Source: an uncultured Alphaproteobacteria bacterium
Lineage (GTDB): Bacteria > Pseudomonadota > Alphaproteobacteria > SP197
Length of the DNA stretch: 64,000 nucleotides
Reading direction: 5' to 3'
NCBI GenBank assembly: GCA_943787175.1
Contig: CALSLK010000003.1
Span: forward strand, 67,409-131,408
In this document: piece after piece, positions 10,631 through 64,000 of the stretch
How positions within the stretch are numbered: the stretch's first letter is position 1
Layout of the letters: the number at the start of each line of letters is the position of its first letter
The notes under the pieces: model-generated
Seen by the model: the letters and a program-made list of their open reading frames with translations, nothing else
What the model was told of the DNA's origin: nothing
Database searches by the model: none
Made by a program: the position numbers and the translations under genes

Positions 10631-11461
10631 ATGAGTTTGAAAGATCTCAGTTACGTCCGGCATGAATATCCCGCTTTGCAGCGTGTGATGTTCCGCATGC
10701 TGGAGCTGATAAGCGGTCAGGCGCGTTTCCTGCGCACCTATGGTGATCACTTTGATCCCTGGTTGGACGCGATGCGCAGGCGCGAGCCCTGGGCGTGGAA
10801 TGACGGCCTCGACCGTCTGGGCATCGAACGCCGCATTCATGGTGAGGCCTGGCCTGTCGATGTTCCCAAGGGTCAGCCGATCGTGATGGTGGCCAATCAT
10901 CCCTTCGGCGTGCTCGACGGAACCACGATGCTGGCCCTGGCAGAACATCTGGAGCGCCCCATCAAGGTTATGATCGACAAGGCTTTGCTGCGCTTTGAGC
11001 CGCTGCGCGAATACGCCCTGCCGGTTGATTTCACGGAAACACAGGAAGCCAGGCAGACGAATGTGGAGAGCCGGCGCGAAGCCCGCGCTTGCCTCAGTCG
11101 TGGCGAGACCATCATTGTCTTTCCTGCTGCCGGCGTTGCAATAGCGCGCAACCCCTTTGGTCCGTCTGTCGATCAGCCCTGGGGTCCGCTGACGGCCAGC
11201 CTGATTCTCGATACCCAGGCAACCACGGTGCCGGTGTTCTTTCCCGGGCGGTGCAGCACAATGTTTCACCTGTTTGGCCGCATCAAACTCGACCTGCGTC
11301 GAACGCTGATGGCCAGTGAATTTTTCCGGCGCTGTGGCACGCCCATCGACCTTCATGTCGGCAAGCCGATCCCGGCAGGCGAGCTTGAGGCGATGGACGA
11401 TCGAACTGCGATCATGCAGCACCTCCGTGCGGTCGTGCATCAGCTCGGTGGTTTGCGATAA
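10631..11461 (+). CDS. Lysophospholipid / PlsC-family acyltransferase (hemolysin-like)
   Basis: HX4D acyltransferase motif (VANHPFGVLDG) and a PAAG-like motif (VFPAAGVAIA). Confidence 0.6.
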   Translation: MSLKDLSYVRHEYPALQRVMFRMLELISGQARFLRTYGDHFDPWLDAMRRREPWAWNDGLDRLGIERRIHGEAWPVDVPKGQPIVMVANHPFGVLDGTTMLALAEHLERPIKVMIDKALLRFEPLREYALPVDFTETQEARQTNVESRREARACLSRGETIIVFPAAGVAIARNPFGPSVDQPWGPLTASLILDTQATTVPVFFPGRCSTMFHLFGRIKLDLRRTLMASEFFRRCGTPIDLHVGKPIPAGELEAMDDRTAIMQHLRAVVHQLGGLR

Positions 11462-53482: not shown

Positions 53483-54057
53483 GCGATGTCCGGCCACTGA
53501 TTCTGGCTTCCCAATCGCCGCGTCGCCTCGACTTGCTGGCCCAGATTGGCATCACACCGGATTCTGTTGTGCCTGCCGAGCTGGATGAATCACCGCTGAA
53601 AAACGAGGCGCCCGGTCAGCTTGCTCGACGCCTGGCACAGGCCAAGGCGCAAGCCGTCGCGGTAAGTCGCACCGATGCCGCGGTCATCGGCGCCGACACC
53701 GTGGTGGCCTGTGGCAGACGGATTCTCGCCAAACCCGCCGACGCTGCAGAGGCCAGACGGTTTCTGACATTGCTGTCGGGAAGGCGTCATGTCGTGCACG
53801 GCGGATTGTGTGTGATTGTGGATGGTCGTGCTCACGTGCGTCATGTCGCGACGCGCGTGGGCGTGAAGCGTCTGTCGGATCAGGAAATCGACTGGTACCT
53901 CGACAGCGGTGAATGGCATGGCAAGGCAGGCGGTTACGCCATCCAGGGCCGCGCCGCTGCCTTCGTGGACCTCGTCAACGGCTCCTACAGCAATGTCGTG
54001 GGCCTGCCGCTTCACGAGACCGCGCAACTGCTTGGCGGGCTGGGTCTGCTGCGATGA
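53479..54057 (+). CDS. maf: Maf-like nucleoside triphosphate pyrophosphatase (septum formation protein Maf)
   Basis: Maf-family motifs (LILASQSPRR, GADTVV, SNVVGLPL). Followed by an rng-like gene, as in the E. coli yhdE-rng order. Confidence 0.85.
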   Translation: MSDVRPLILASQSPRRLDLLAQIGITPDSVVPAELDESPLKNEAPGQLARRLAQAKAQAVAVSRTDAAVIGADTVVACGRRILAKPADAAEARRFLTLLSGRRHVVHGGLCVIVDGRAHVRHVATRVGVKRLSDQEIDWYLDSGEWHGKAGGYAIQGRAAAFVDLVNGSYSNVVGLPLHETAQLLGGLGLLR

Positions 54058-55194
54058 GCGTCGATGCCATTCTTGCCGAGACGACCCCGCGTGCCATGCG
54101 CATTGCCCTGATGGAAGGCGATCGGCTTGTATCACTGCATGTTGATCGGCCAGGTAAGGGCCACAGACGAGATGACGTCTTTGCCGGCAGGGTTACACGG
54201 GTCGTGCCAGGCCTGAATGCGGCCTTTGTCGATCTTGGTGAAGGTGTGACGGGATTTCTGCGTGCCCGGGAAGCCGATGTTGATGGCTCCGGTCTGGGAA
54301 TCGCCAAACTGGTGCAGGAAGGCGGCAAGGTCACCGTTGCGATCAAGACCGATGCCCATGATGAAAAAGGCCCCGTCCTGACCCGCAAGTTCAAGGATTC
54401 TGACGGCGTGATTTCGGCTGCAGGTGTGCGGGCACAGCCGCCGCGCCTTATCAGCCGGTCCGAACAGATGCTGGTGCATCTGGCTGGGCTCTGGCCACAG
54501 GCCCGTGTCGTGGCAGACAGCCCCGCTGACCTGGTGGCGCTACGGCGCATCGAACGGGCTGGGGCGGTAACCCTGCATCAGGGCATGCAATCGTTGTTTG
54601 AAGGCGCTGGCGTCGAAGATCAGCTTGAAGAAGCGCTTGCGCCGGAGGTTCGGTTGCATTCGGGTTCCGTTTTGCGGTTTTGAACCGACCCGCACCCTGG
54701 CTGCCATTGATGTCGACAGCGCCGGGGCCAGTGAATCTGCCGGCGATGCTGTTGCCATCAATCTGGAAGCCGTGCCGGTGCTGGCCCGCCAGATCCGCTT
54801 GCGCAATCTGGGCGGTCTGATTGTCATCGACTTTCTCAAGATGCAGGACGCTTCAGCAGGCAAACGCCTGATGGGGAATCTGAGCGAGCACCTCGTGTCT
54901 GATCCCGCTGAAACGGCGCTGGATGGCCCTTCGCGTTTCGGCCTTGTGGAGATTGCCCGCCAGCGAGCCGGACCGACTCTGGCCCAGTCAACGGGAACGC
55001 CTGTTGTGGCGGCAACCGAGCGACTGATCCGTCGCTTGCGTCAGGAGTCACGTGCGCAGGGCGGGGCAGCGCTCGAGATCAGGGCGTCACCAGACGTTGC
55101 TGCTGCATTTCAGGGCGATGACGGCGGCGCATCCATTGCGCGCTGGTTGGGAAGGCGCCTGGATCTGATTGCTGAACCGGGTCCGTTCGTATGA
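54054..55194 (+). pseudogene. rng: Ribonuclease E/G family protein (RNase G-like), frame change near 54600-54680
   Basis: S1 domain plus RNase E/G catalytic-region similarity (AIDVDSAG..., GLIVIDF). The N-terminal 210 aa and C-terminal 198 aa are in different frames. Confidence 0.65.
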
Positions 55195-55547: not shown

Positions 55548-55633
55548 TGAAGACAGCGATCCTTGAGACCGTTGTTCGGGGTGCTGGACAAGCACCCGCG
55601 AATTCCTAAACAAGCCGCGCTGTTATGGCATGT

Positions 55634-55671
55634 GCCCGGGTAGCTCAGTTGGTAGAGCAGCGGATTGAAAA
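55634..55671 (+). repeat. Partial copy of the tRNA-Phe 5' half (positions 1-38), a putative att junction of an integrated element
   Basis: 38 nt identical to the 5' half of the intact tRNA-Phe at 58733-58808, diverging exactly after the anticodon loop. Confidence 0.7.
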
Positions 55672-55804
55672 CCCGATTTAGGGCAATTTCGTACATATAC
55701 ATAGCTGACCATTTCTACCGCTAATCGGTTGATATAGCGTAATGATTCTGGACATGGCGATACTCTCCAGCACATGCAATTGATGTGACTATGAGGAGAC
55801 TAAG

Positions 55805-56341
55805 ATGCCACCGCTCGCGCTCACCGACCTATCGGTGAAGGGCCTGTCCGCACCCGAGGCGGGACAGAAAACCTATTGGGATTCGACGCTCAAGGGCTTT
55901 GGTGCTCGTGTCTCTCAAGGGGGCACCAAAAGCTTCGTCGTTATGCACGGGCGCAACCGCGAACTCACGACTTTGGGGCGATATCCCACAATCCGGTTGA
56001 AGGATGCACGAAGCGCGGCGAAAACCGTTCTGGCGGAAAGAGCGTTAGGGAAACATCGGTCCACAGCAGTCAAATTTTCTGACGCTCTGGATCGTTTTCT
56101 AAAGGAGAAAGAACGCACCGTTCGCTCAAAGACGTACCGCGACTACAAGCGACTTCTCGAACTCCATTGGAAGCCAAGGTTCGGTCTGCTCGATCTTGAA
56201 GTACACCCTAATTCCCTAGACCGTGATCTGGCCGAAGTCGTGTTCGCGGCGAGTGTCGTTGTGCGTAAGATGAACCGGGCACATTGCAGTGAGGTGGAAT
56301 ACCTCGCGTTTCCGTTCCGCGCAGGGTGTGGATCAAGCTGA
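55805..56341 (+). pseudogene. Truncated P4-type tyrosine integrase (arm-binding DUF4102 N-terminus only)
   Basis: N-terminus LTDLSVKGLSAPEAGQKTYWDSTLKGFGARVSQGGTKSFVV is typical of the arm-binding domain of tRNA-associated integrases. Only 178 aa, and the catalytic domain is absent. Confidence 0.7.
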
Positions 56342-56713
56342 CAGGTGAGATGCGCTGCGCGTCTGCAACAAGCCATAAATGAGCAGAACCTTTCAAAGCC
56401 GGAGAGACTGGGGAATTCCGCCCCTCTCTGTTCCGGCCAGGGGGTTTGCTGTGGAGAGAGATGCGAACCGGTGTTCGGCGCCTCAGTAAAACAATCTTCG
56501 ACAATGTGAGAGTGCCGCTCTGAGCCTAGGTCAACCCCACTATCACCACCTACATTAATGCCCGATACGCCGACCCAAAACCATGTTCGCAAGGCTAGAT
56601 CAAGGTAACCATTGTCTGCCGTCAGCGCCTTTGGGACAGATTGAGTGGTTTTCATAAGGGAGTTTTCTGGCTCATCGTAGTGACCGTAGGGAACGAAGAT
56701 GAGGCAGAAAACC

Positions 56714-57073
56714 ATGAGCAAGAGCGACCCGGCAGAACAGGCCATCCGCGACATTCGGCGCAAGACGCGCAAGCGTTATTCGGCTGAGGAGAAGATCCGG
56801 ATTGTGTTATCGGGCCTGCGCGGCGAGGAGAGCATCGCGGCTTTATGTCGCCATGAAGGCATCGCCGAGGGTCTTTATTACAGTTGGTCCAAGGAGTTCC
56901 TGGAGGCTGGCAAGAAGCGCCTTGCCGGCGACACGGCGCGTCAGGCCAGCAGTCCCGAGGTTAAGACACTGCGTGTCGAAGCCCGCGATCTCAAGGAGGC
57001 GCTGGCCGAACAGATACTGGAGAACCGGTTACTCAAAAAAAGCATGATCGGGGATGGGGGAGACGAGGAATGA
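56714..57073 (+). CDS. IS3-family transposase OrfA (HTH plus leucine zipper)
   Basis: IS3 OrfA-like sequence RYSAEEKIRIVLSGLRGEESIAALCRHEGIAEGLYYSWSKEFLEAGKKRL. Confidence 0.8.
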   Translation: MSKSDPAEQAIRDIRRKTRKRYSAEEKIRIVLSGLRGEESIAALCRHEGIAEGLYYSWSKEFLEAGKKRLAGDTARQASSPEVKTLRVEARDLKEALAEQILENRLLKKSMIGDGGDEE

Positions 57074-58044
57074 GATATCCCGCATCTGAGAAACTGGAAA
57101 TCATCAGGCTGGTCGAAGGCTCTCATCTACCGGTCCGGCGGACGTTGGATAAGCTGGGCATCCCGAGCACGACGTTTTACCGGTGGTACGACCGGTATCG
57201 AGGTGGAGGCGGCCTTGATGACCGCACCAGTGGCCCCGGTCGGGTGTGGAACCGCATCCCCGACGATGTGCGCCAGCAGATCGTGGAGATGGCCCTGGAT
57301 GAGCCGGAACTATCGTCCAGGGAACTGGCCGTGAGGTTCACTGACACGAGACGCTATTTTGTCTCAGAAGCGTCTGTCTACCGGCTGCTCAAGGCCCACG
57401 ACCTGATCACCAGCCCGGCCTTCATCGTCATCAAGGCAGCGAATGAGTTCAAGGACAAGACCTCAGCTCCGAACCAGCTCTGGCAGACCGACTTCACCTA
57501 CTTCAAGGTCATCGGATGGGGATGGTTCTATCTGTCGACCATTCTCGACGACTACTCGCGCTACATCATCGCCTGGAAGCTGTGCACCACCATGAAGGCG
57601 GGCGATGTGACCCAGACACTGGAACTCGCGTTGGAAGCATCAGGCTGCGACCAGGCCGAGGTCATCCATAAACCCCGGCTGCTCAGCGATAATGGTTCGT
57701 CCTATATATCCGGCGATCTGGCCGAATGGCTTGAAGGCCAGGGTATGGAGCACGTTCGCGGTGCACCCTATCACCCGCAGACCCAGGGTAAGATCGAGCG
57801 TTGGCATCAGACGCTCAAGAACCGGATCTTGCTGGAAAACTACTATCTGCAGGGCGATCTCGAAAACCAGATCGGCACCTTCGTGGATTATTACAACAAC
57901 CATCGCTACCACGAGAGCATTGGCAACGTCACACCATCGGATGCTTACTTCGGGCGCCACACAGCCATCATCGAAAAGAGGGAAAAGATCAAAAAACTCA
58001 CCATCCAAACCCGCCGCTTGAACCATCAACAACAAGCGGCTTAA
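57070..58044 (+). CDS. IS3-family transposase OrfB (DDE rve integrase core)
   Basis: DDE region: WQTDFTYF, LSDNGSSY, YHPQTQGKIERWHQTLK. Confidence 0.85.
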   Translation: MRYPASEKLEIIRLVEGSHLPVRRTLDKLGIPSTTFYRWYDRYRGGGGLDDRTSGPGRVWNRIPDDVRQQIVEMALDEPELSSRELAVRFTDTRRYFVSEASVYRLLKAHDLITSPAFIVIKAANEFKDKTSAPNQLWQTDFTYFKVIGWGWFYLSTILDDYSRYIIAWKLCTTMKAGDVTQTLELALEASGCDQAEVIHKPRLLSDNGSSYISGDLAEWLEGQGMEHVRGAPYHPQTQGKIERWHQTLKNRILLENYYLQGDLENQIGTFVDYYNNHRYHESIGNVTPSDAYFGRHTAIIEKREKIKKLTIQTRRLNHQQQAA

Positions 58045-58073
58045 CATCAAATCAAGATGAGCCAGATACTCAA

Positions 58074-58421
58074 TTAGAAAACGAGCTCACGCGTCCCAAA
58101 TGTTCTGACGACGGACAGGGCGACCATCGGATAGTCGGACGGCAATTCCCATTTGTCGCAGTACTCCTTTGGCGTCAGATTGTGCTCGGAATACAGATGC
58201 CGTTTGAGTGTCTTGAACTGCTTGCCGTCCTCCAGGCACACCAGATAGTCCGGCCTCACGGACTTCTTGATGGAGACAGCGGGCACCTGATCCTTGGCAG
58301 TTGTTGTATTGTCATCTGCCGAGATCTGGTCGAGTGACTGGAAATTGGCCTGCATGAACTCGGGAAGTGTCTCTGCAGACATCTGATTGTTGGCGCCGAA
58401 GGCAGCGACGATCTTTGTCAT
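58074..58421 (-). CDS. MucR/Ros-family zinc-finger transcriptional regulator; the C-terminus is probably altered by the IS insertion
   Basis: Ros/MucR C2H2-like motif (VCLEDGKQFKTLKRHLYSEHNLTPKEYCDKWELPSDYPMVA). The sequence after PMVA does not follow the family pattern and its last codons lie within the IS right inverted repeat. Confidence 0.7.
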   Translation of the reverse strand: MTKIVAAFGANNQMSAETLPEFMQANFQSLDQISADDNTTTAKDQVPAVSIKKSVRPDYLVCLEDGKQFKTLKRHLYSEHNLTPKEYCDKWELPSDYPMVALSVVRTFGTRELVF

Positions 58422-58732
58422 GCATAGGAGTAGCTCTTGGCGCGTTCGGCTCCGCTGAGCCAGCATCTTAGCCTCTTTTCAAATGTGACTAAGGCGATTT
58501 CTGGAATCCGGTGTCTGCTCTGATGGGATGGGATTCCATCTGGATTGGGAACATGAGCCAGATCGTCCAAATTGCTTGCAAACTTGGGCTCGATCCTCTT
58601 TTCGTTTCAGTAACGATGTGTTAGCAAACCGCTCCCGTCGAGGGAGTTAGCCACATGCCGAGTCAAATCATGTGACTATGAAGTGACTAAGAAATTGTTG
58701 ATATCTTCTAAGTGGTTGATTTTAAACAGTTT

Positions 58733-58808
58733 GCCCGGGTAGCTCAGTTGGTAGAGCAGCGGATTGAAAATCCGCGTGTCGGTGGTTCAAATCCGCCCCC
58801 GGGCACCA
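58733..58808 (+). tRNA. tRNA-Phe (anticodon GAA)
   Basis: GCCCGGGTAGCTCAGTTGGTAGAGCAGCGGATTGAAAATCCGCGTGTCGGTGGTTCAAATCCGCCCCCGGGCACCA. Forms a cloverleaf with anticodon loop TTGAAAA and an encoded CCA. Confidence 0.9.
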
Positions 58809-59017
58809 CTTCCCCCCAGTTCGCATTGATGGCGTCCGAAACGTATTGGTATCGCGTGATAACCGTCCTTACGAGTCATCGGCCCGCTTGCGCTGTGTGG
58901 ACTATAAGACCGTTGCAGAAATGCTGATCTTCACCCCGGCCCTATCGGTCGTCCGATTCCGCTGCCATGGTGGTGAGCGCTTTATCCTCAACCAGCCGCA
59001 CATGGAGGCGGCAGATC

Positions 59018-59407
59018 ATGAAACATGTTCCCGGACTGTCGCTTGCCGCAATCCTGATCCTTGCTGCTACGTCCTGGGTGCAGGCCCAAGAGCTGATGGC
59101 TGAGTTCCATGATCGTGACGTTGAGGTCCATAATTACTCGGATTACAGCATGGACACGCTCACGGCCACGCCGAGTTCAGGCCAGACCGAGTCTGTCAAC
59201 CTGTTGCACTTTGCACTACCAGGCAACCAAGGCGTCGAAGTCTTCATCAGCAATACCGAGCCCGAAACTTGCGAATTTGACCTTCGTGCATCCTTCTCTG
59301 ACGGCAGCCACCAATGCAGGAAAGCTGTCGATCTGTGCTGGACTGAAAGGGTCACGTTCTTTGATCTGAACACGGATGAATTGGAAGCTGAATTTGCCTG
59401 CGACTAG
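59018..59407 (+). CDS. Secreted hypothetical protein
   Basis: Signal peptide (MKHVPGLSLAAILILAATSWVQAQ) and four Cys residues. No recognisable family. Confidence 0.4.
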   Translation: MKHVPGLSLAAILILAATSWVQAQELMAEFHDRDVEVHNYSDYSMDTLTATPSSGQTESVNLLHFALPGNQGVEVFISNTEPETCEFDLRASFSDGSHQCRKAVDLCWTERVTFFDLNTDELEAEFACD

Positions 59408-59530
59408 CGTTGGGTGTCTGTTGCATAGTGTCGAGATCAAATCAACGATTAACGCACTCAAACCACTAGGCTGACGTCGGCACCAACGCTCCCCCTGCGG
59501 GCTCTGCGTCACGCTGATTGACTTACCCGC

Positions 59531-60496
59531 ATGGTGAACGACAAGATTGGCACTATGACGAACAGCATGGTGGGCCAGGACGCGATGACTTCCCTGATAT
59601 CGACCGACGATTCCTACAGGATCAGCCCGCCCAGCAGCGCTGATGGTGTGATGCCGCCGGCTTATGATGTCGAGGGCGGAAGATCGGTGTCGGAAGCTGC
59701 GGTCGAACAGTTCGAGAGCGATGGCGTGATCTGTCTGCGCAACGTGATCGATGAAAGAACAATCGACCTGCTGCGCGCAGAAGCTGACGATGCCGTTGCC
59801 AATCCCAGCGAAGACGCCAGGTTTGTGCGCACGCCAGGTAATGACGCGATCTTCTATTACGAGTTTAACTTGTGGCGTCGCCATGCCGAGCTCAGGAGAG
59901 TCCTCCACGAGAGTCCGATTGCTGATCTGGGTGCTGCCCTGATGCGCTCAAACGGCGTGGCGTTGCATTATACCAACACGTTCGTGAAAGATGCCGGTGC
60001 ATCCGACAAGCCCACGCCCTGGCATGAGGATGCCTCCTATCATCGCATGATGGGCAGCAACGCCCTGGCGATGTTCCTGGCCTATGACCACATGCCGGCC
60101 GAGACGACGCTTAAATACAAGCAGGCGTCGCACCTGAAGGACGATCCGATCTATATGGCATCAACCTTCCTGAAAGGAGAGGAGTATGGGGAATGGATGG
60201 AAGACCATGTTCCCATGCCGCCCCAGGCCGAACTGGATGCACGGTTCCGCACGATCTATTGGGAAGTCGACCCTGGCGACGTGCTCGTGTTCACGCAACG
60301 CACCTTGCACGCAGGGCCGCCCAACACACTACCAACACGCCGCCATGCCACGTCGTTCAACATGATCGGTGATGGCATCCGCTATGACGGCAGGCCCGGG
60401 CCCGTGGATGCGCCGGGCGGGCTTGATCCAAAGCTCGAGCATGGTGCCATTCCGGTTTCGGATGCCTATCCGATTCTGCGAGGCAAGCTCAGCTAA
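59531..60496 (+). CDS. PhyH-family Fe(II)/2OG dioxygenase, paralog 2
   Basis: HxD (TPWHEDASY) and distal His (RTLHAGPPN). N-terminal FESDGVICLRNVIDERTIDLL resembles that of the paralog at 61991. Confidence 0.75.
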   Translation: MVNDKIGTMTNSMVGQDAMTSLISTDDSYRISPPSSADGVMPPAYDVEGGRSVSEAAVEQFESDGVICLRNVIDERTIDLLRAEADDAVANPSEDARFVRTPGNDAIFYYEFNLWRRHAELRRVLHESPIADLGAALMRSNGVALHYTNTFVKDAGASDKPTPWHEDASYHRMMGSNALAMFLAYDHMPAETTLKYKQASHLKDDPIYMASTFLKGEEYGEWMEDHVPMPPQAELDARFRTIYWEVDPGDVLVFTQRTLHAGPPNTLPTRRHATSFNMIGDGIRYDGRPGPVDAPGGLDPKLEHGAIPVSDAYPILRGKLS

Positions 60497-60502
60497 CCGG
60501 GC

Positions 60503-61216
60503 TCACCAGGCAAGTGGCGCGCGGTCCCGGAAAAACCCTCCGGTGGGACCGCCGTCGGGCAGGGTTGCCAGATAGATCGCCGTATCGGCCCCTTCTTCGG
60601 GTGTTCGGTCGGGTACGCTGCCGCTGGGATCCCAGGGCGCGCTGTCCTCACCCATGCGCGTCTGCACCCAGCCTGGGCAAAGCGCATTGATCAGGATCTC
60701 GGGGCCGGCTTCGCGTGCCAGATGCACGGTCATTGCGTTCAGTGCGGCCTTGGTGATGGCATAGGACGGCGTGCCTTCAAGACCCTCGGCGAAGGAGCCC
60801 CAGGCCGAAGAGACGTTGACCACCCGACCCCAGCCGCGCTCCATCATGTCGGGCACGAAGGCTCGGGCCGTATTGAGCGGCCCCAGAAAGTTGATGGCAA
60901 TTGACTGGCCCATGGGGTCAGGATCCCTGAGCAGAGAGCCTGGCACAAAGACCCCGGCATTGTTCACCAGCACATCCACCGCGATGCCCCGGGCCTTGAG
61001 TTCCTTGGCGCAATGCAGGGCAGATTGCGGGTCGGCGACATCCAGAACGACTGAGGTGGCATCAAATCCTTCGCCTTTGAGGACATCTGCCGCTTTGAGG
61101 CCGAGAGCTTCGTCGCGGGCAGCCAGAATGATGCGATGACCGGAAAGTGCCAGGCCCCTGCAGATGGCAAAACCAATGCCACGGTTGCCGCCGGTAACCA
61201 GAGCCGTGCGCATCAT
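60503..61216 (-). CDS. SDR family oxidoreductase
   Basis: TGGNRGIG cofactor motif, NNAG, and a catalytic YxxxK (YAITKAALN). Confidence 0.85.
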   Translation of the reverse strand: MMRTALVTGGNRGIGFAICRGLALSGHRIILAARDEALGLKAADVLKGEGFDATSVVLDVADPQSALHCAKELKARGIAVDVLVNNAGVFVPGSLLRDPDPMGQSIAINFLGPLNTARAFVPDMMERGWGRVVNVSSAWGSFAEGLEGTPSYAITKAALNAMTVHLAREAGPEILINALCPGWVQTRMGEDSAPWDPSGSVPDRTPEEGADTAIYLATLPDGGPTGGFFRDRAPLAW

Positions 61217-61372
61217 GCCTCTCCCTTCAGGTTCACAATCGGGACCAGTGTGCCCAATTGCCGGGTCGTCTGCCAGCCCGGCAGATTGTCAGTCCATCAC
61301 CATGGCCACCAACGTCTTTGGCGTTATGATTGTTGTCCGGTTATCACCAGTATCATCACCAAGAGAGAGCCA

Positions 61373-61972
61373 ATGACCCTGACGGTTTACGAAGTTTCAT
61401 CGACCCGCTCGGACCGGGTGCTCTGGGCCTTGCAGGAACTGGGTGTGGATTATGAAAGCCGCAACGATCGCAGCCTGTTCGGCTCCGATGAACTCAAAGC
61501 CGTGCATCCGCAAGGCAAGCTGCCCGCGATCACGGATGATGGCAGGCCTCTGTTTGAATCGGCTGCGATCTGCACCTGGCTTGCCGACAAACATGCCGAC
61601 AAGGGACTGAGTTTTGCCTCAGGAACCTGGGAGAGGGCCCTGCATGACCAGTGGACCGCCTTTGTCCTGTCGGAGCTTGAAGCGCATTTATGGATCCATG
61701 CCCGCAATGCCATCATCTATGAGAAAGAAGATCGCCTGGAAGCAGTTTTCGTGCAGGCAGACAAGGAAGCCGTGGCAAGTCTTGCGGTGCTTGATACGCA
61801 TCTCTCGGCCAACGACTACATGGTCGCTGGCCATTTTTCCGTCACGGACATTATCACGGGGTTTGCCACGAATTGGGCCCAAAGCACCGGACTCACCAGC
61901 AATGCTCCCCATGTCGAAGCCTACAATGCGCGCCTGCGCGAGCGCTCGCATTGCCCTCTTGATAACGCCTGA
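61373..61972 (+). CDS. Glutathione S-transferase family protein
   Basis: Thioredoxin-like N-terminal domain (LTVYEVSSTRSDRVLWALQELGV..., KLPAITDDGRPLFESAAICTWL) followed by a helical C-terminal domain. Confidence 0.7.
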   Translation: MTLTVYEVSSTRSDRVLWALQELGVDYESRNDRSLFGSDELKAVHPQGKLPAITDDGRPLFESAAICTWLADKHADKGLSFASGTWERALHDQWTAFVLSELEAHLWIHARNAIIYEKEDRLEAVFVQADKEAVASLAVLDTHLSANDYMVAGHFSVTDIITGFATNWAQSTGLTSNAPHVEAYNARLRERSHCPLDNA

Positions 61973-61990
61973 CGCGAGCCTGACGGCAAT

Positions 61991-62830
61991 ATGAGCGATC
62001 AAACCCTTTCCCAGGAAGATCTGGAGACATTCAGGCGTGACGGCGCGGTTTGTCTGCGCGGTGTGATCGACCAACCCTGGCGCGACCTGCTTGCGCACGG
62101 CATCGCGCGGTCCATGGAAACACCCACCATCCATGCGCAAACCTATGCGCGCGATGATCAAGGTGCCCGCTACTTCATGGATACAGTCCATTGGGGCCAT
62201 ATCCCCGAATTCATGACCTATGCAAACGATGGCCCGGCATCTGCGTTGGCAGCACAGGCGTTGGGTGCGTCGACCATGGTTTTTCTGGAACAGGACTGGT
62301 TCTACCAGGATGCGGGGTCAAGCGGGCGCACACCATGGCATCACGATCTGCCCTACTACGACCTCGAAGGCACCTTTGCGACGGTTTGGGTGCCCCTTGA
62401 TCCGGCGCCTGATCAGGTACGCCTTGAACTGATCGCAGGTTCGCATCTCTGGCCGGACCTCTATGTTCCCAACAGTTTCGACGGCAAGGGCGCAAAGGCC
62501 GATGTCGGGGTTGTTCGGGGCAAGCACTTTAAGTCGATGCCTGCCTTCGACGACGAACGCGACCGCTATCATATTCTGGGCTGGGACATGGAGCCGGGTG
62601 ATTGCGTTCTGTTTCATTGCCGGACCATCCACAGCGGCGCGCCGTCCCAAACGCAGGGGCAATTTCGCCGTGCTGCGACACGGTTCGCTGTTGCGGATGA
62701 TTGCCGCATTGCCCGAAAGGGCGTGTCCTGGTCGGATTTTTACGAAAATCTGCCGCTGAACCTTGACGACGGAGCGCTGGTTTCCAGCAACCCTGACTAT
62801 TTCCCCCAAGTCTGGCCCAGAACGCCATGA
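61991..62830 (+). CDS. PhyH-family Fe(II)/2OG dioxygenase, paralog 3
   Basis: HxD (TPWHHDLPY) and distal His (RTIHSGAP). Confidence 0.75.
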   Translation: MSDQTLSQEDLETFRRDGAVCLRGVIDQPWRDLLAHGIARSMETPTIHAQTYARDDQGARYFMDTVHWGHIPEFMTYANDGPASALAAQALGASTMVFLEQDWFYQDAGSSGRTPWHHDLPYYDLEGTFATVWVPLDPAPDQVRLELIAGSHLWPDLYVPNSFDGKGAKADVGVVRGKHFKSMPAFDDERDRYHILGWDMEPGDCVLFHCRTIHSGAPSQTQGQFRRAATRFAVADDCRIARKGVSWSDFYENLPLNLDDGALVSSNPDYFPQVWPRTP

Positions 62831-62849
62831 CCAATCAGGATGCCCCCTC

Positions 62850-63278
62850 ATGAAATTTGCCATCGTTTCGATTACGGCCTTGATGCTGTTGTTTGCAAGC
62901 AGCAAGACCCAGGCGCAAACCATCGACCTGGAGCCGTTCTCCGGCGAAGCTTTCTGCTACGGCACTGAGCCGTTCTGGTCGCTTGACTATGCAGACGGGC
63001 AGGGGCGCTGGTCGAACTATGGCAGCGATGGCTGGTTGGAGTTTTCGCTTTCCGGCACGTTCCGTGTTGCCGGGGCTGCCTATGGCCCAATTGCGGTGTG
63101 GCGCGGAAACACGGGTGAACCCGATGCTGGCGACTATGTCATCGTTGCAGAACCTGCAGAAATCGAGGTTTCCGAACAGGATGACTTCCTGCCGACCCAT
63201 GCAGCGGTGGTTGTGACGCCCAAAGGCGAATTGTTGCGCGGCACCTGTTCGTTGCCCGCCCGTGCTATTGGCTGGTAG
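62850..63278 (+). CDS. Secreted hypothetical protein
   Basis: Signal peptide MKFAIVSITALMLLFASSKTQAQ. 143 aa. Confidence 0.4.
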   Translation: MKFAIVSITALMLLFASSKTQAQTIDLEPFSGEAFCYGTEPFWSLDYADGQGRWSNYGSDGWLEFSLSGTFRVAGAAYGPIAVWRGNTGEPDAGDYVIVAEPAEIEVSEQDDFLPTHAAVVVTPKGELLRGTCSLPARAIGW

Positions 63279-63359
63279 GTCCCTGCAACTGGCGGCTTCC
63301 TTTCGACGGCGACATGCCTGTATGATGTCGCCAACAGGTTCTAAGGAACCGTTTCAGGA

Positions 63360-63569
63360 ATGACGTGGAGATTGCCGATGTTCGCTTTGACCCGACATGT
63401 ATTGCGGACACTTGCCGCGTTTTCCAGCCACGAAGAGGGCCTGGTCAAGGCCGAGCGCTCGCTTCTGACGGGTTGCTTCGTCATGCTGGTGATCACGATC
63501 CTGGTGCTTCTGGGCACGGACATTGCCGGATGGTTCGGCATTGAGCCTCCGGTCGAAGAAGACGCATAA
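63360..63569 (+). CDS. Small hypothetical membrane protein
   Basis: One hydrophobic helix (LLTGCFVMLVITILVLLG). Weak call. Confidence 0.2.
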   Translation: MTWRLPMFALTRHVLRTLAAFSSHEEGLVKAERSLLTGCFVMLVITILVLLGTDIAGWFGIEPPVEEDA

Positions 63570-63598
63570 GCCTCTGGCTGTCGGTTTGCGTTGACGGC

Positions 63599-64000
63599 TC
63601 AGCGCGAGCTCTCCTGAACACCTTCCAAAATCTCGACCCGAATTGGTGTCGGTTCCCCGTCATTGCAGGGATTGTTCATTTGTGGACAGTTCGAGATGAC
63701 CGCGAGTGTGCGCATCTCGGCACGCAGTTCCACGTGATCTCCGGCATGTGAACCGCCGCCGGGAATAGGAACAAAGGAACGTTCGGCAAGCTGGCCGTCG
63801 TTCACGACGGGAACATTGCAGAAAAAATTGACGTTGGGGACGATGTCGCGCCGCCCCAGGTTGTGATCCGACAGCGCGGTCAGGAAGTTCTCGCGGCAGC
63901 CCGGGCAATCCTTAACGCCATAAAGCATCTCGTTGCTGTGGGCGCTGCAACAACCCCCAATGGTGTCATGGAAGCCGCCCACGCTATCGGCGACCATGGT
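63599..64000 (-). CDS. Hypothetical protein, 3' part only (the gene continues beyond the window edge); possibly DUF1989 / urea-carboxylase-associated family
   Basis: ORF runs off the window. The NVNFFCNVPV segment resembles the NFFMNVP motif of DUF1989 proteins. Low certainty. Confidence 0.3.
   Translation of the reverse strand, partial: TMVADSVGGFHDTIGGCCSAHSNEMLYGVKDCPGCRENFLTALSDHNLGRRDIVPNVNFFCNVPVVNDGQLAERSFVPIPGGGSHAGDHVELRAEMRTLAVISNCPQMNNPCNDGEPTPIRVEILEGVQESSR

Follow-up and report, generated by a model that had tools for sequence, protein, structure and literature searches.

The locus analysed here surrounds the tRNA-Phe gene of an uncultured marine alphaproteobacterium, within a stretch of 64,000 nucleotides (nt) of contig CALSLK010000003.1 (GenBank assembly GCA_943787175.1) that constitutes the window of this study. 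A partial copy of tRNA-Phe lies upstream of the intact gene, and the two copies enclose an integrase pseudogene, an insertion sequence (IS) of the IS3 family and a truncated gene for a regulator of the Ros/MucR family. This arrangement, 3.1 kilobases (kb) in length, is very probably the remnant of a decayed integrative element that inserted at the tRNA-Phe anticodon loop in the reverse of the usual orientation. The features of the locus are listed below in window coordinates, with attachment (att) site roles and promoter assigned by prediction; loci fetched for comparison carry L numbers.

55585-55612, plus strand: presumed ancestral tRNA-Phe promoter (TGGACA at 55585, 16-nt spacer, TAAACA at 55607)
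55634-55675, plus strand: displaced 5' fragment of tRNA-Phe, nt 1-42, predicted attL core (direct repeat D1; L003 and L004)
55676-55804, plus strand: int-proximal arm Y, predicted P'-like side of attP (repeat D3)
55805-56341, plus strand: integrase pseudogene, an open reading frame (ORF) of 178 amino acids (aa) (Pfam PF13356 and PF14659)
56186-56612, no strand: segment of 427 nt without assignment, between the integrase breakpoint and the IS
56613-58117, plus strand: IS3-family insertion sequence of 1,505 base pairs (bp) (Pfam, NCBIfam, plasmid IS matches, ends read from the sequence)
58074-58466, minus strand: Ros/MucR-family regulator, truncated at its 3' end (PF05443)
58467-58732, plus strand: tRNA-proximal arm X, predicted P-like side of attP (repeat D3, motif counts)
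58733-58808, plus strand: intact tRNA-Phe(GAA), predicted attR (ARAGORN; Rfam tRNA, 71.8 bits)

The two tRNA copies are related by a 43-nt direct repeat (D1), detected with a repeat finder over the entire window, in which positions 55633-55675 and 58732-58774 are identical at 42 of 43 nt with a spacing of 3,099 nt. In tRNA-Phe(GAA) numbering the repeat spans nt -1 to 42. As befits an anticodon-loop integration site, the identity block is perfect up to nt 38, the end of the loop, and thus includes the acceptor 5' strand, the D-arm, the anticodon 5' stem and the loop itself; the mismatch falls at nt 39 (T in the intact gene, C in the fragment), and similarity ceases past nt 42. The fragment accordingly carries an imperfect anticodon 3' stem (CCCGA vs TCCGC), and its Rfam tRNA score of 25.9 bits is sub-threshold, as expected of half a gene. 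ARAGORN calls one tRNA-Phe(GAA) in the window, at 58733-58808. Mismatch-tolerant searches of the 64 kb recovered the 5' half of tRNA-Phe twice and the 3' half once, against a chance expectation of approximately zero, and no further copies of either half. The repeat lies far beyond chance and the observation is therefore real, which bears out the claim of a previous sequence-only reading of this locus that nt 1-38 of tRNA-Phe are duplicated 3.1 kb upstream of the intact gene. The fold of the fragment together with its downstream flank is unremarkable (z -1.74). With a 5' fragment upstream of, and co-oriented with, the intact tRNA gene (tDNA) and an integrase gene between them, the configuration corresponds to that of a 5'-fragment island, and in annotation terms the short stretch at 55634 that resembles a tRNA is an att scar.

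Homologues of YacG were used to retrieve contigs of Rhodospirillales-like relatives, with roughly 70-77% YacG identity over approximately half of the protein. Three of these (L006, L007 and L008) present the gene order maf-rng-yacG followed directly by an intact tRNA-Phe gene, 54-98 nt past yacG. In the window it is the tRNA fragment, and not the intact gene, that sits 86 nt past yacG. The 50 nt upstream of the fragment share with the regions upstream of tRNA-Phe in L005 and L006 a series of conserved blocks (CTGGACAA, GCGAATT and TAAACA; alignment A1), and the 55585-55612 block aligns with the sequence preceding their intact tRNA-Phe (GCTGGACAA...GCGAATT.C.TAAACA), whereas the 90 nt upstream of the window's intact tRNA-Phe are unrelated to the corresponding region of these relatives. 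The shared upstream blocks and the yacG synteny thus place the fragment at the ancestral position, probably next to the ancestral promoter, and the upstream DNA of the working tRNA-Phe gene is foreign. The presumed ancestral promoter at 55585-55612, where a consensus scan called none, now precedes the displaced fragment, and its activity is putative.

One of the relatives, L005, yielded a separate observation: its contig (JABIUG010000404.1, assembly GCA_018700655.1) stops exactly at tRNA-Phe position 43, past the anticodon stem (8349-8391 of L005), and the cause may be that the population is polymorphic at the same integration core.

The ORF downstream of the fragment encodes the N-terminal portion of a P4-like tyrosine integrase. 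Pfam identifies in it an Arm-DNA-bind_3 domain (PF13356; aa 6-84, E 8.6e-12) and part of a Phage_int_SAM_3 domain (PF14659; aa 91-131, E 9.5e-06, covering profile positions 2-42 of 58 only). As determined by tblastn, homology to full-length relatives ends at 56185, around aa 127, and the remaining 51 codons are unrelated read-through. No tblastn match past aa 127, and hence none to the catalytic domain (PF00589, with its R-H-R-Y residues), was obtained anywhere in the window; what is left of this family member is therefore a gene fragment and not a functional integrase. The sequence-only reading had described a 178-aa fragment of a P4-type integrase without catalytic domain: the P4-like N-terminal domains and the loss of the catalytic domain hold, while the integrase-derived part shrinks to about 127 aa. 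The segment that follows the breakpoint (56186-56612) has no match in Pfam, PHROGs, the plasmid collection or the fetched loci, other than in the identical contigs L003 and L004. A weak but recurrent similarity of 18 aa to the catalytic-Tyr region of integrases on the minus strand (56497-56550) was attributed to chance, with E of at least 0.025 in a search space of 455 nt and without the catalytic residues.

The family to which this stump belongs was surveyed for its attachment sites. Scanning genome contigs with the stump returned two loci only, the first relative being L002, from a Rhodobacterales metagenome-assembled genome, which encodes a complete integrase of 326 aa and bears, about 170 nt upstream, a co-oriented 5' half of tRNA-His that diverges right after the anticodon loop. 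A protein search yielded several thousand homologues, of which the best 120 are 285-362 aa long and contain the same two Pfam domains. Genomic contexts were taken from named genomes, 80 metagenomic loci and viral contigs, and the 330 nt upstream of each int gene were classified with D-arm and T-arm structure tests in the 69 distinct loci whose upstream sequence extended to 200 nt or more. In 57 of these 69 loci a T-arm (3' half) is found on the opposite strand, the arrangement we refer to as classical. Seven loci carry a co-oriented 5' half, belonging to tRNA-His (L002, L109), tRNA-Arg-TCT (L011, the Paracoccaceae GXU_MW_L88 element), tRNA-Arg-CCT (L018, L019), tRNA-Thr-TGT (L089) and tRNA-Pro-TGG (L092), and the remaining five have nothing recognisable.

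The geometry of the two classes is shared. In both, the break in the tRNA piece falls at the anticodon stem-loop, and this side is turned towards int at a distance of approximately 130-170 nt; in every case identity to the true tRNA stops 0-4 nt beyond the loop, and a CATAGCT-type motif occurs about 20 nt inside the element. The element side is thus constant, and it is the tRNA orientation alone that flips. The nearest neighbours of each reverse-type integrase are of the classical type, so the reversal arose more than once. The stump itself is closest to the integrases of L088 and L094 (59-60% identity over about 115 aa), which are of the classical type and adjoin a tRNA with a CAT anticodon, and it is 47-50% identical to those of L028, L033, L038, L046 and L054, five loci that use the same tRNA-Phe loop in the classical orientation. 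Placement of the stump as a specific member of the short (~326-aa) L002 clade was considered and dropped, its best matches being classical-type integrases of 375-412 aa.

Two loci from two assemblies, L109 and L110, bear upon the origin of the 5' half. In both, the tRNA-His 5' half is followed on the right by Y and int, and its left flank contains co-oriented phage-like genes and a tandem pair of the GACTAA type (GAGACTAAAAA-GCGACTAACG) that repeats almost exactly the sequence surrounding the int start codon. This junction is either the attP of a free element or the internal junction of a tandem array, and under either reading the element itself bears the tRNA 5' half. Together with the synteny and alignment of relatives and with the geometry of the family, it upholds the proposal of the sequence-only reading that the element supplied the tRNA's 5' half. 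The far end was found in none of the reverse-type loci within 10 kb; a scan of viral contigs for the L092 tRNA-Pro half returned the int-side copy on that contig only, and a viral scan for the tRNA-Phe half returned only an unrelated complete tRNA-Phe (L108).

The survey also provided several observations on the family at large. Directly downstream of the integrase gene of L002, positions 11168-11432 match Rfam RF02649 ('Ruegeria trans44 sRNA') with 166.8 bits, and a weak echo of this family occurs in L010 (10993-11104); given the match beside the integrase, this curated 'sRNA' family seems to be part of these mobile elements. Three loci present a complete tRNA-Gln(TTG) on the opposite strand at the usual distance from int (L044, 617-690; L070, 1439-1513; L072, 240-314), which may mean that a whole tRNA travels with the element, or that int is located at the intact-tRNA end. 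An intact tRNA-His(GTG) is located inside a Sulfitobacter element (L010, 12445-12520), 2.4 kb past int, and the att fragment of this element is tRNA-Thr(TGT). The intact elements L009, L010, L011 and L109 have in common a module consisting of int, an AlpA-like excisionase, one or more FtsK/TrwB-like ATPases, Replic_Relax and a primase zinc-ribbon protein, accompanied in some of them by a terminase small subunit (GP3_package), which suggests phage-like or satellite-like elements of Rhodobacterales.

Returning to the window, sequence motifs of a common type are found at both inner ends of the remnant. In the int-proximal arm Y, a CATAGC motif occurs at 55699, and positions 55785-55805 hold a tandem pair, GTGACTATGAG-GAGACTAAGA, which overlaps both the ribosome-binding site and the start codon of int; this layout recurs in the arms of L002, L109, L011 and L092. 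The tRNA-proximal arm X contains a GAGACTA motif at 58485 and a second tandem pair, GTGACTATGAA-GTGACTAAGA, at 58672-58692, 40 nt upstream of the intact tRNA, the two pairs constituting repeat D3. The repeats follow the pattern GTGACTATGA(A/G)G(T/A)GACTAAGA; all four GACTA[AT]GA matches in the 64 kb fall inside the two D3 copies, and all five plus-strand G[AT]GACTA matches lie within the element. Because of their position and of the presence of an arm-binding domain in the integrase, the GACTA repeats are predicted to be arm-type integrase sites on both arms of attP. In L002, L109 and L092, too, the integrase gene has its ribosome-binding site and start codon overlapped by the tandem GACTA(A) repeat, and integrase binding there might self-regulate int expression.

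Arm X also contains a promoter-like sequence, recognised by eye and not called by the consensus scan, that comprises TTGATA (58698), a 17-nt spacer and TTTAAA (58721) and ends 6 nt before tRNA +1; this TTGATA-17-TTTAAA sequence is a candidate for an element-borne promoter of the intact tRNA-Phe. GC profiling sets the non-IS parts of the element, with 50-55% G+C content (GC), apart from the window (58.6%) and the right flank (58.5%), in agreement with the AT-richer content reported between the tRNA copies by the sequence-only reading.

The IS3-family element that this reading had placed between the copies was confirmed and appears to be intact. Its terminal inverted repeats are imperfect, extend over approximately 27 nt as judged by eye and have the form TG...CA (TGTCTGCCGTCAGCGCCTTTGGGACAG vs TGTCCGTCGTCAGAACATTTGGGACGC). 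The frames orfA (56699-57073) and orfB (57070-58044) are joined by a -1 frameshift site, an A7G slippery run read from the sequence at 57035-57042, and their products match Pfam HTH_Tnp_1 (orfA, helix-turn-helix) and rve (orfB, DDE), as well as the NCBIfam IS3 transposase model above its cut-off. Plasmid-borne IS3-family elements show about 72% identity to it across query positions 456-1979 of window segment 56150-58250. No target-site duplication is present, the flanks being CAT and GGG, and the IS was therefore involved in a deletion, or copies of the IS recombined with each other; the missing duplication implies later deletion or recombination of this kind, and not that the element falls outside the IS3 family.

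The effect of that event is visible in the adjacent regulator gene. The match to PF05443 (ROS_MUCR; E 5.9e-36) covers profile positions 3-108 of 123 only and stops where the right end of the IS (58117) begins, so that the gene is clipped: its native part comprises 116 codons (58118-58466), the last 14 codons and the stop derive from the right end of the IS, and the full-length ROS_MUCR domain with its C-terminal part is not present. A Ros/MucR-type regulator is hence recognisable, as the sequence-only reading stated, in clipped and not in intact form; the function as a xenogeneic silencer that this reading ascribed to its type is putative here. In the MucR homologue, which reads VCLEDGKQFKTLKRHLYSEH, the first zinc-ligand pair is C-L-E-D instead of CxxC, with Asp as the second residue.

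Part of this structure was recovered in two different marine metagenomes, L003 (JGI 3300025890) and L004 (ENA SRR1699484). Both contain the fragment, arm Y, the stump, the filler segment and the left junction of the IS, with differences amounting to two single-nucleotide polymorphisms and a 1-nt indel inside the IS, and the first bases of L003 are GCATGT, from the yacG side. Natural marine populations therefore do contain the remnant.

These observations can be brought together in a model of insertion and decay. The integrase would have been a P4-like tyrosine recombinase with an N-terminal arm-binding domain, from a family that recombines at tRNA anticodon stem-loops, and the attP of the element would have had the structure X - tRNA-Phe nt 1-38 - core - Y - int. 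Recombination there, with a crossover presumably inside the anticodon loop or immediately ahead of it, would convert the chromosomal site, with upstream DNA U and downstream DNA D, into U - 5' half - Y - int ... X - 5' half - 3' half - D. At the left junction (55634-55675) the host promoter and the original 5' half would thereby have been joined to Y and int, and at the right junction (58733-58808) the X arm of the element and its own 5' half would have been fused to the chromosomal 3' half. The intact tRNA-Phe would be a hybrid, element-derived from nt 1 to about 38 and chromosomal in the remainder, and transcription of the cell's tRNA-Phe would now presumably start in DNA of the element. A mismatch at nt 39 is in keeping with this model, in which all of the fragment sequence to the right of the loop is derived from attP. 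As to decay, the probable order of events is that the integrase lost everything past about aa 127, that the IS3-family element arrived, and that the interior and the 3' end of mucR were lost through a deletion next to the IS or between IS copies, leaving an immobile 3.1-kb remnant with two att ends that still look intact.

Alternative explanations differ from this model in where they place the right end of the element or in the origin they assign to the partial tRNA. The element could be larger than the remnant, having brought in a complete tRNA-Phe and, as cargo, the PhyH, SDR, GST and PhyH genes that follow it, with a right end beyond the window. Some family members do adjoin a complete tRNA (the tRNA-Gln loci L044, L070 and L072), the DNA downstream of tRNA-Phe varies between relatives, and the window ends 5.2 kb past the tRNA. 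However, no second tRNA-Phe 3' piece was found in 58809-64000, the right flank has the GC of the window average and not that of the element, it lacks mobility genes, and the GACTA arm pair is on the left side of the tRNA, which is where the end of an element should have it. We consider this larger element improbable, and the suggestion of the sequence-only reading that these genes are island cargo is not sustained, for they lie outside the att-bounded element, are of genome-typical GC and are followed by no tRNA-Phe 3' fragment within the window. They could belong to a separate, older island, because the region downstream of tRNA-Phe varies among relatives. Nothing ties the genes to the element.

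Alternatively, the partial tRNA could be a by-product of IS-mediated or illegitimate duplication or rearrangement, with the stump as unrelated debris, and an active-looking IS3 without target duplication between the copies does indicate that rearrangements happened here. Yet the IS ends lie 940 nt and 615 nt from the two repeat copies, the arm-type repeat is found at both ends, and it is precisely at the anticodon stem-loop that the fragment stops, with a co-oriented integrase gene starting 171 nt downstream of the tRNA start, the same fragment-int geometry as in seven independent relatives; such an origin is very improbable. Equally, tRNA sequences and IS copies are classic causes of mis-assembly, and both metagenomic contigs, L003 and L004, have their breaks at the tRNA and within the IS, as might be expected if the contig were a chimera produced, for instance, by a mis-join at a conserved tRNA. 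Such a chimera, a concern already raised by the sequence-only reading, would not account for the same fragment-Y-stump-filler-IS junction in two independent assemblies, one of which adds the yacG-side flank GCATGT, and arm repeats and family geometry would not arise from a mis-join, making this explanation extremely improbable.

A decayed element inserted in reverse at the anticodon loop therefore has to be weighed against its own difficulties. The right junction (mucR-X-tRNA) was not recovered independently, an exact-protein look-up of the MucR ORF returning no record, and exact-protein look-ups of YacG with two start choices likewise returned no record of an empty site from the same species. 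The survey contains no intact reverse-type relative with both ends, so that the end formed by the putative X promoter and the intact tRNA is known from the window only. The DNA to the right of the tRNA is not demonstrably ancestral, this region being variable among the available, distant relatives, and the sigma-70 consensus scan called no promoter upstream of 58733. With these points taken into account, we still hold reverse-oriented insertion of an element that has since decayed to be highly probable.

On the yacG side of the locus, the RNase E/G-like gene between maf and yacG (54054-55176) is split by a frameshift near 54680; its L005 homologue aligns in frame 3 over residues 1-209 and in frame 1 over residues 209-374, and the frameshift is either that of a pseudogene or a sequencing error.

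Within one family of anticodon-loop integrases, these comparisons suggest that reversal of the insertion recurs and that tRNA-Phe is used in both orientations. More tentatively, reverse insertion might be a recurrent and selectable mode, seen in about 1 in 10 sampled members, with six tRNA identities and several independent origins, and maintained by a lock-in through 'promoter capture'. If this were true, the reversal would place int directly downstream of a strong host tRNA promoter, and an essential, probably single-copy tRNA would depend on transcription signals borne by the element. As a result of that dependence, the attR end could not be lost by imprecise deletion even after the death of the element, and such a lock-in would explain the near-unchanged persistence of the wreck in separate marine populations. 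Independently of such a lock-in, the case represents a rarely reported outcome of tRNA-targeted integration, with a host tRNA that presumably depends on the putative promoter of a mobile element. If the orientation flips hold up, the integrase family would provide a natural system for the re-orientation and re-targeting of an attP core, and a warning for island-finding tools that expect 3' fragments.

Several known systems offer terms of comparison. The anticodon-loop class of tRNA integration sites was reportedly described by Williams in 2002 in Nucleic Acids Res 30:866. Like the members of that classical class, the window element shows a predicted crossover site at the 7-nt loop, symmetric anticodon stem flanks and an int gene adjoining attP, but it carries the 5' half, and must therefore also supply transcription signals. 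The symbiosis island of Mesorhizobium loti, which Sullivan and Ronson are said to have reported in 1998, reportedly uses a P4-type integrase at the 3' end of phe-tRNA, in the classical orientation, and is large and functional. Both cases are alphaproteobacterial and combine a P4-like integrase with tRNA-Phe, whereas the window element was inserted at the anticodon loop in reverse and has decayed to 3.1 kb.

Use of the 5' side of tRNA genes has precedents in archaea and bacteria. The integrases of pTN3-like elements in archaea (Cossu et al. 2017; reviewed in PMC8371274) have the tRNA 5' half as attB, and expression of the recombinant tRNA likewise depends on DNA of the element (PMC8371274). These archaeal integrases are 'suicidal', with the att site inside int and int split upon integration, in contrast to the window-type int, which would remain undivided when the element integrates, is located next to the att site and encodes an arm-binding N-terminus of the bacterial P4-like type. 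Bacterial recombinant tRNAs are described as keeping their own promoter 'with very few exceptions' (PMC8371274), and the configuration filter of Islander accepts 5' fragments upstream of the tDNA (PMC4383910). In PMC6563490, recombination at the tRNA 5' side is called 'considerably less frequent' than at the 3' side, and Zhao and Williams 2002 is cited as the bacterial case. As described there, the displaced piece of this 5'-distal bacterial element is likewise the 5' side of the tRNA; the window differs from it in being a decayed remnant, in tRNA-Phe, of an uncultured marine alphaproteobacterium. Given these 5'-side cases in the literature, the kind of element is known but rare, and the window contributes a new, decayed example of it.

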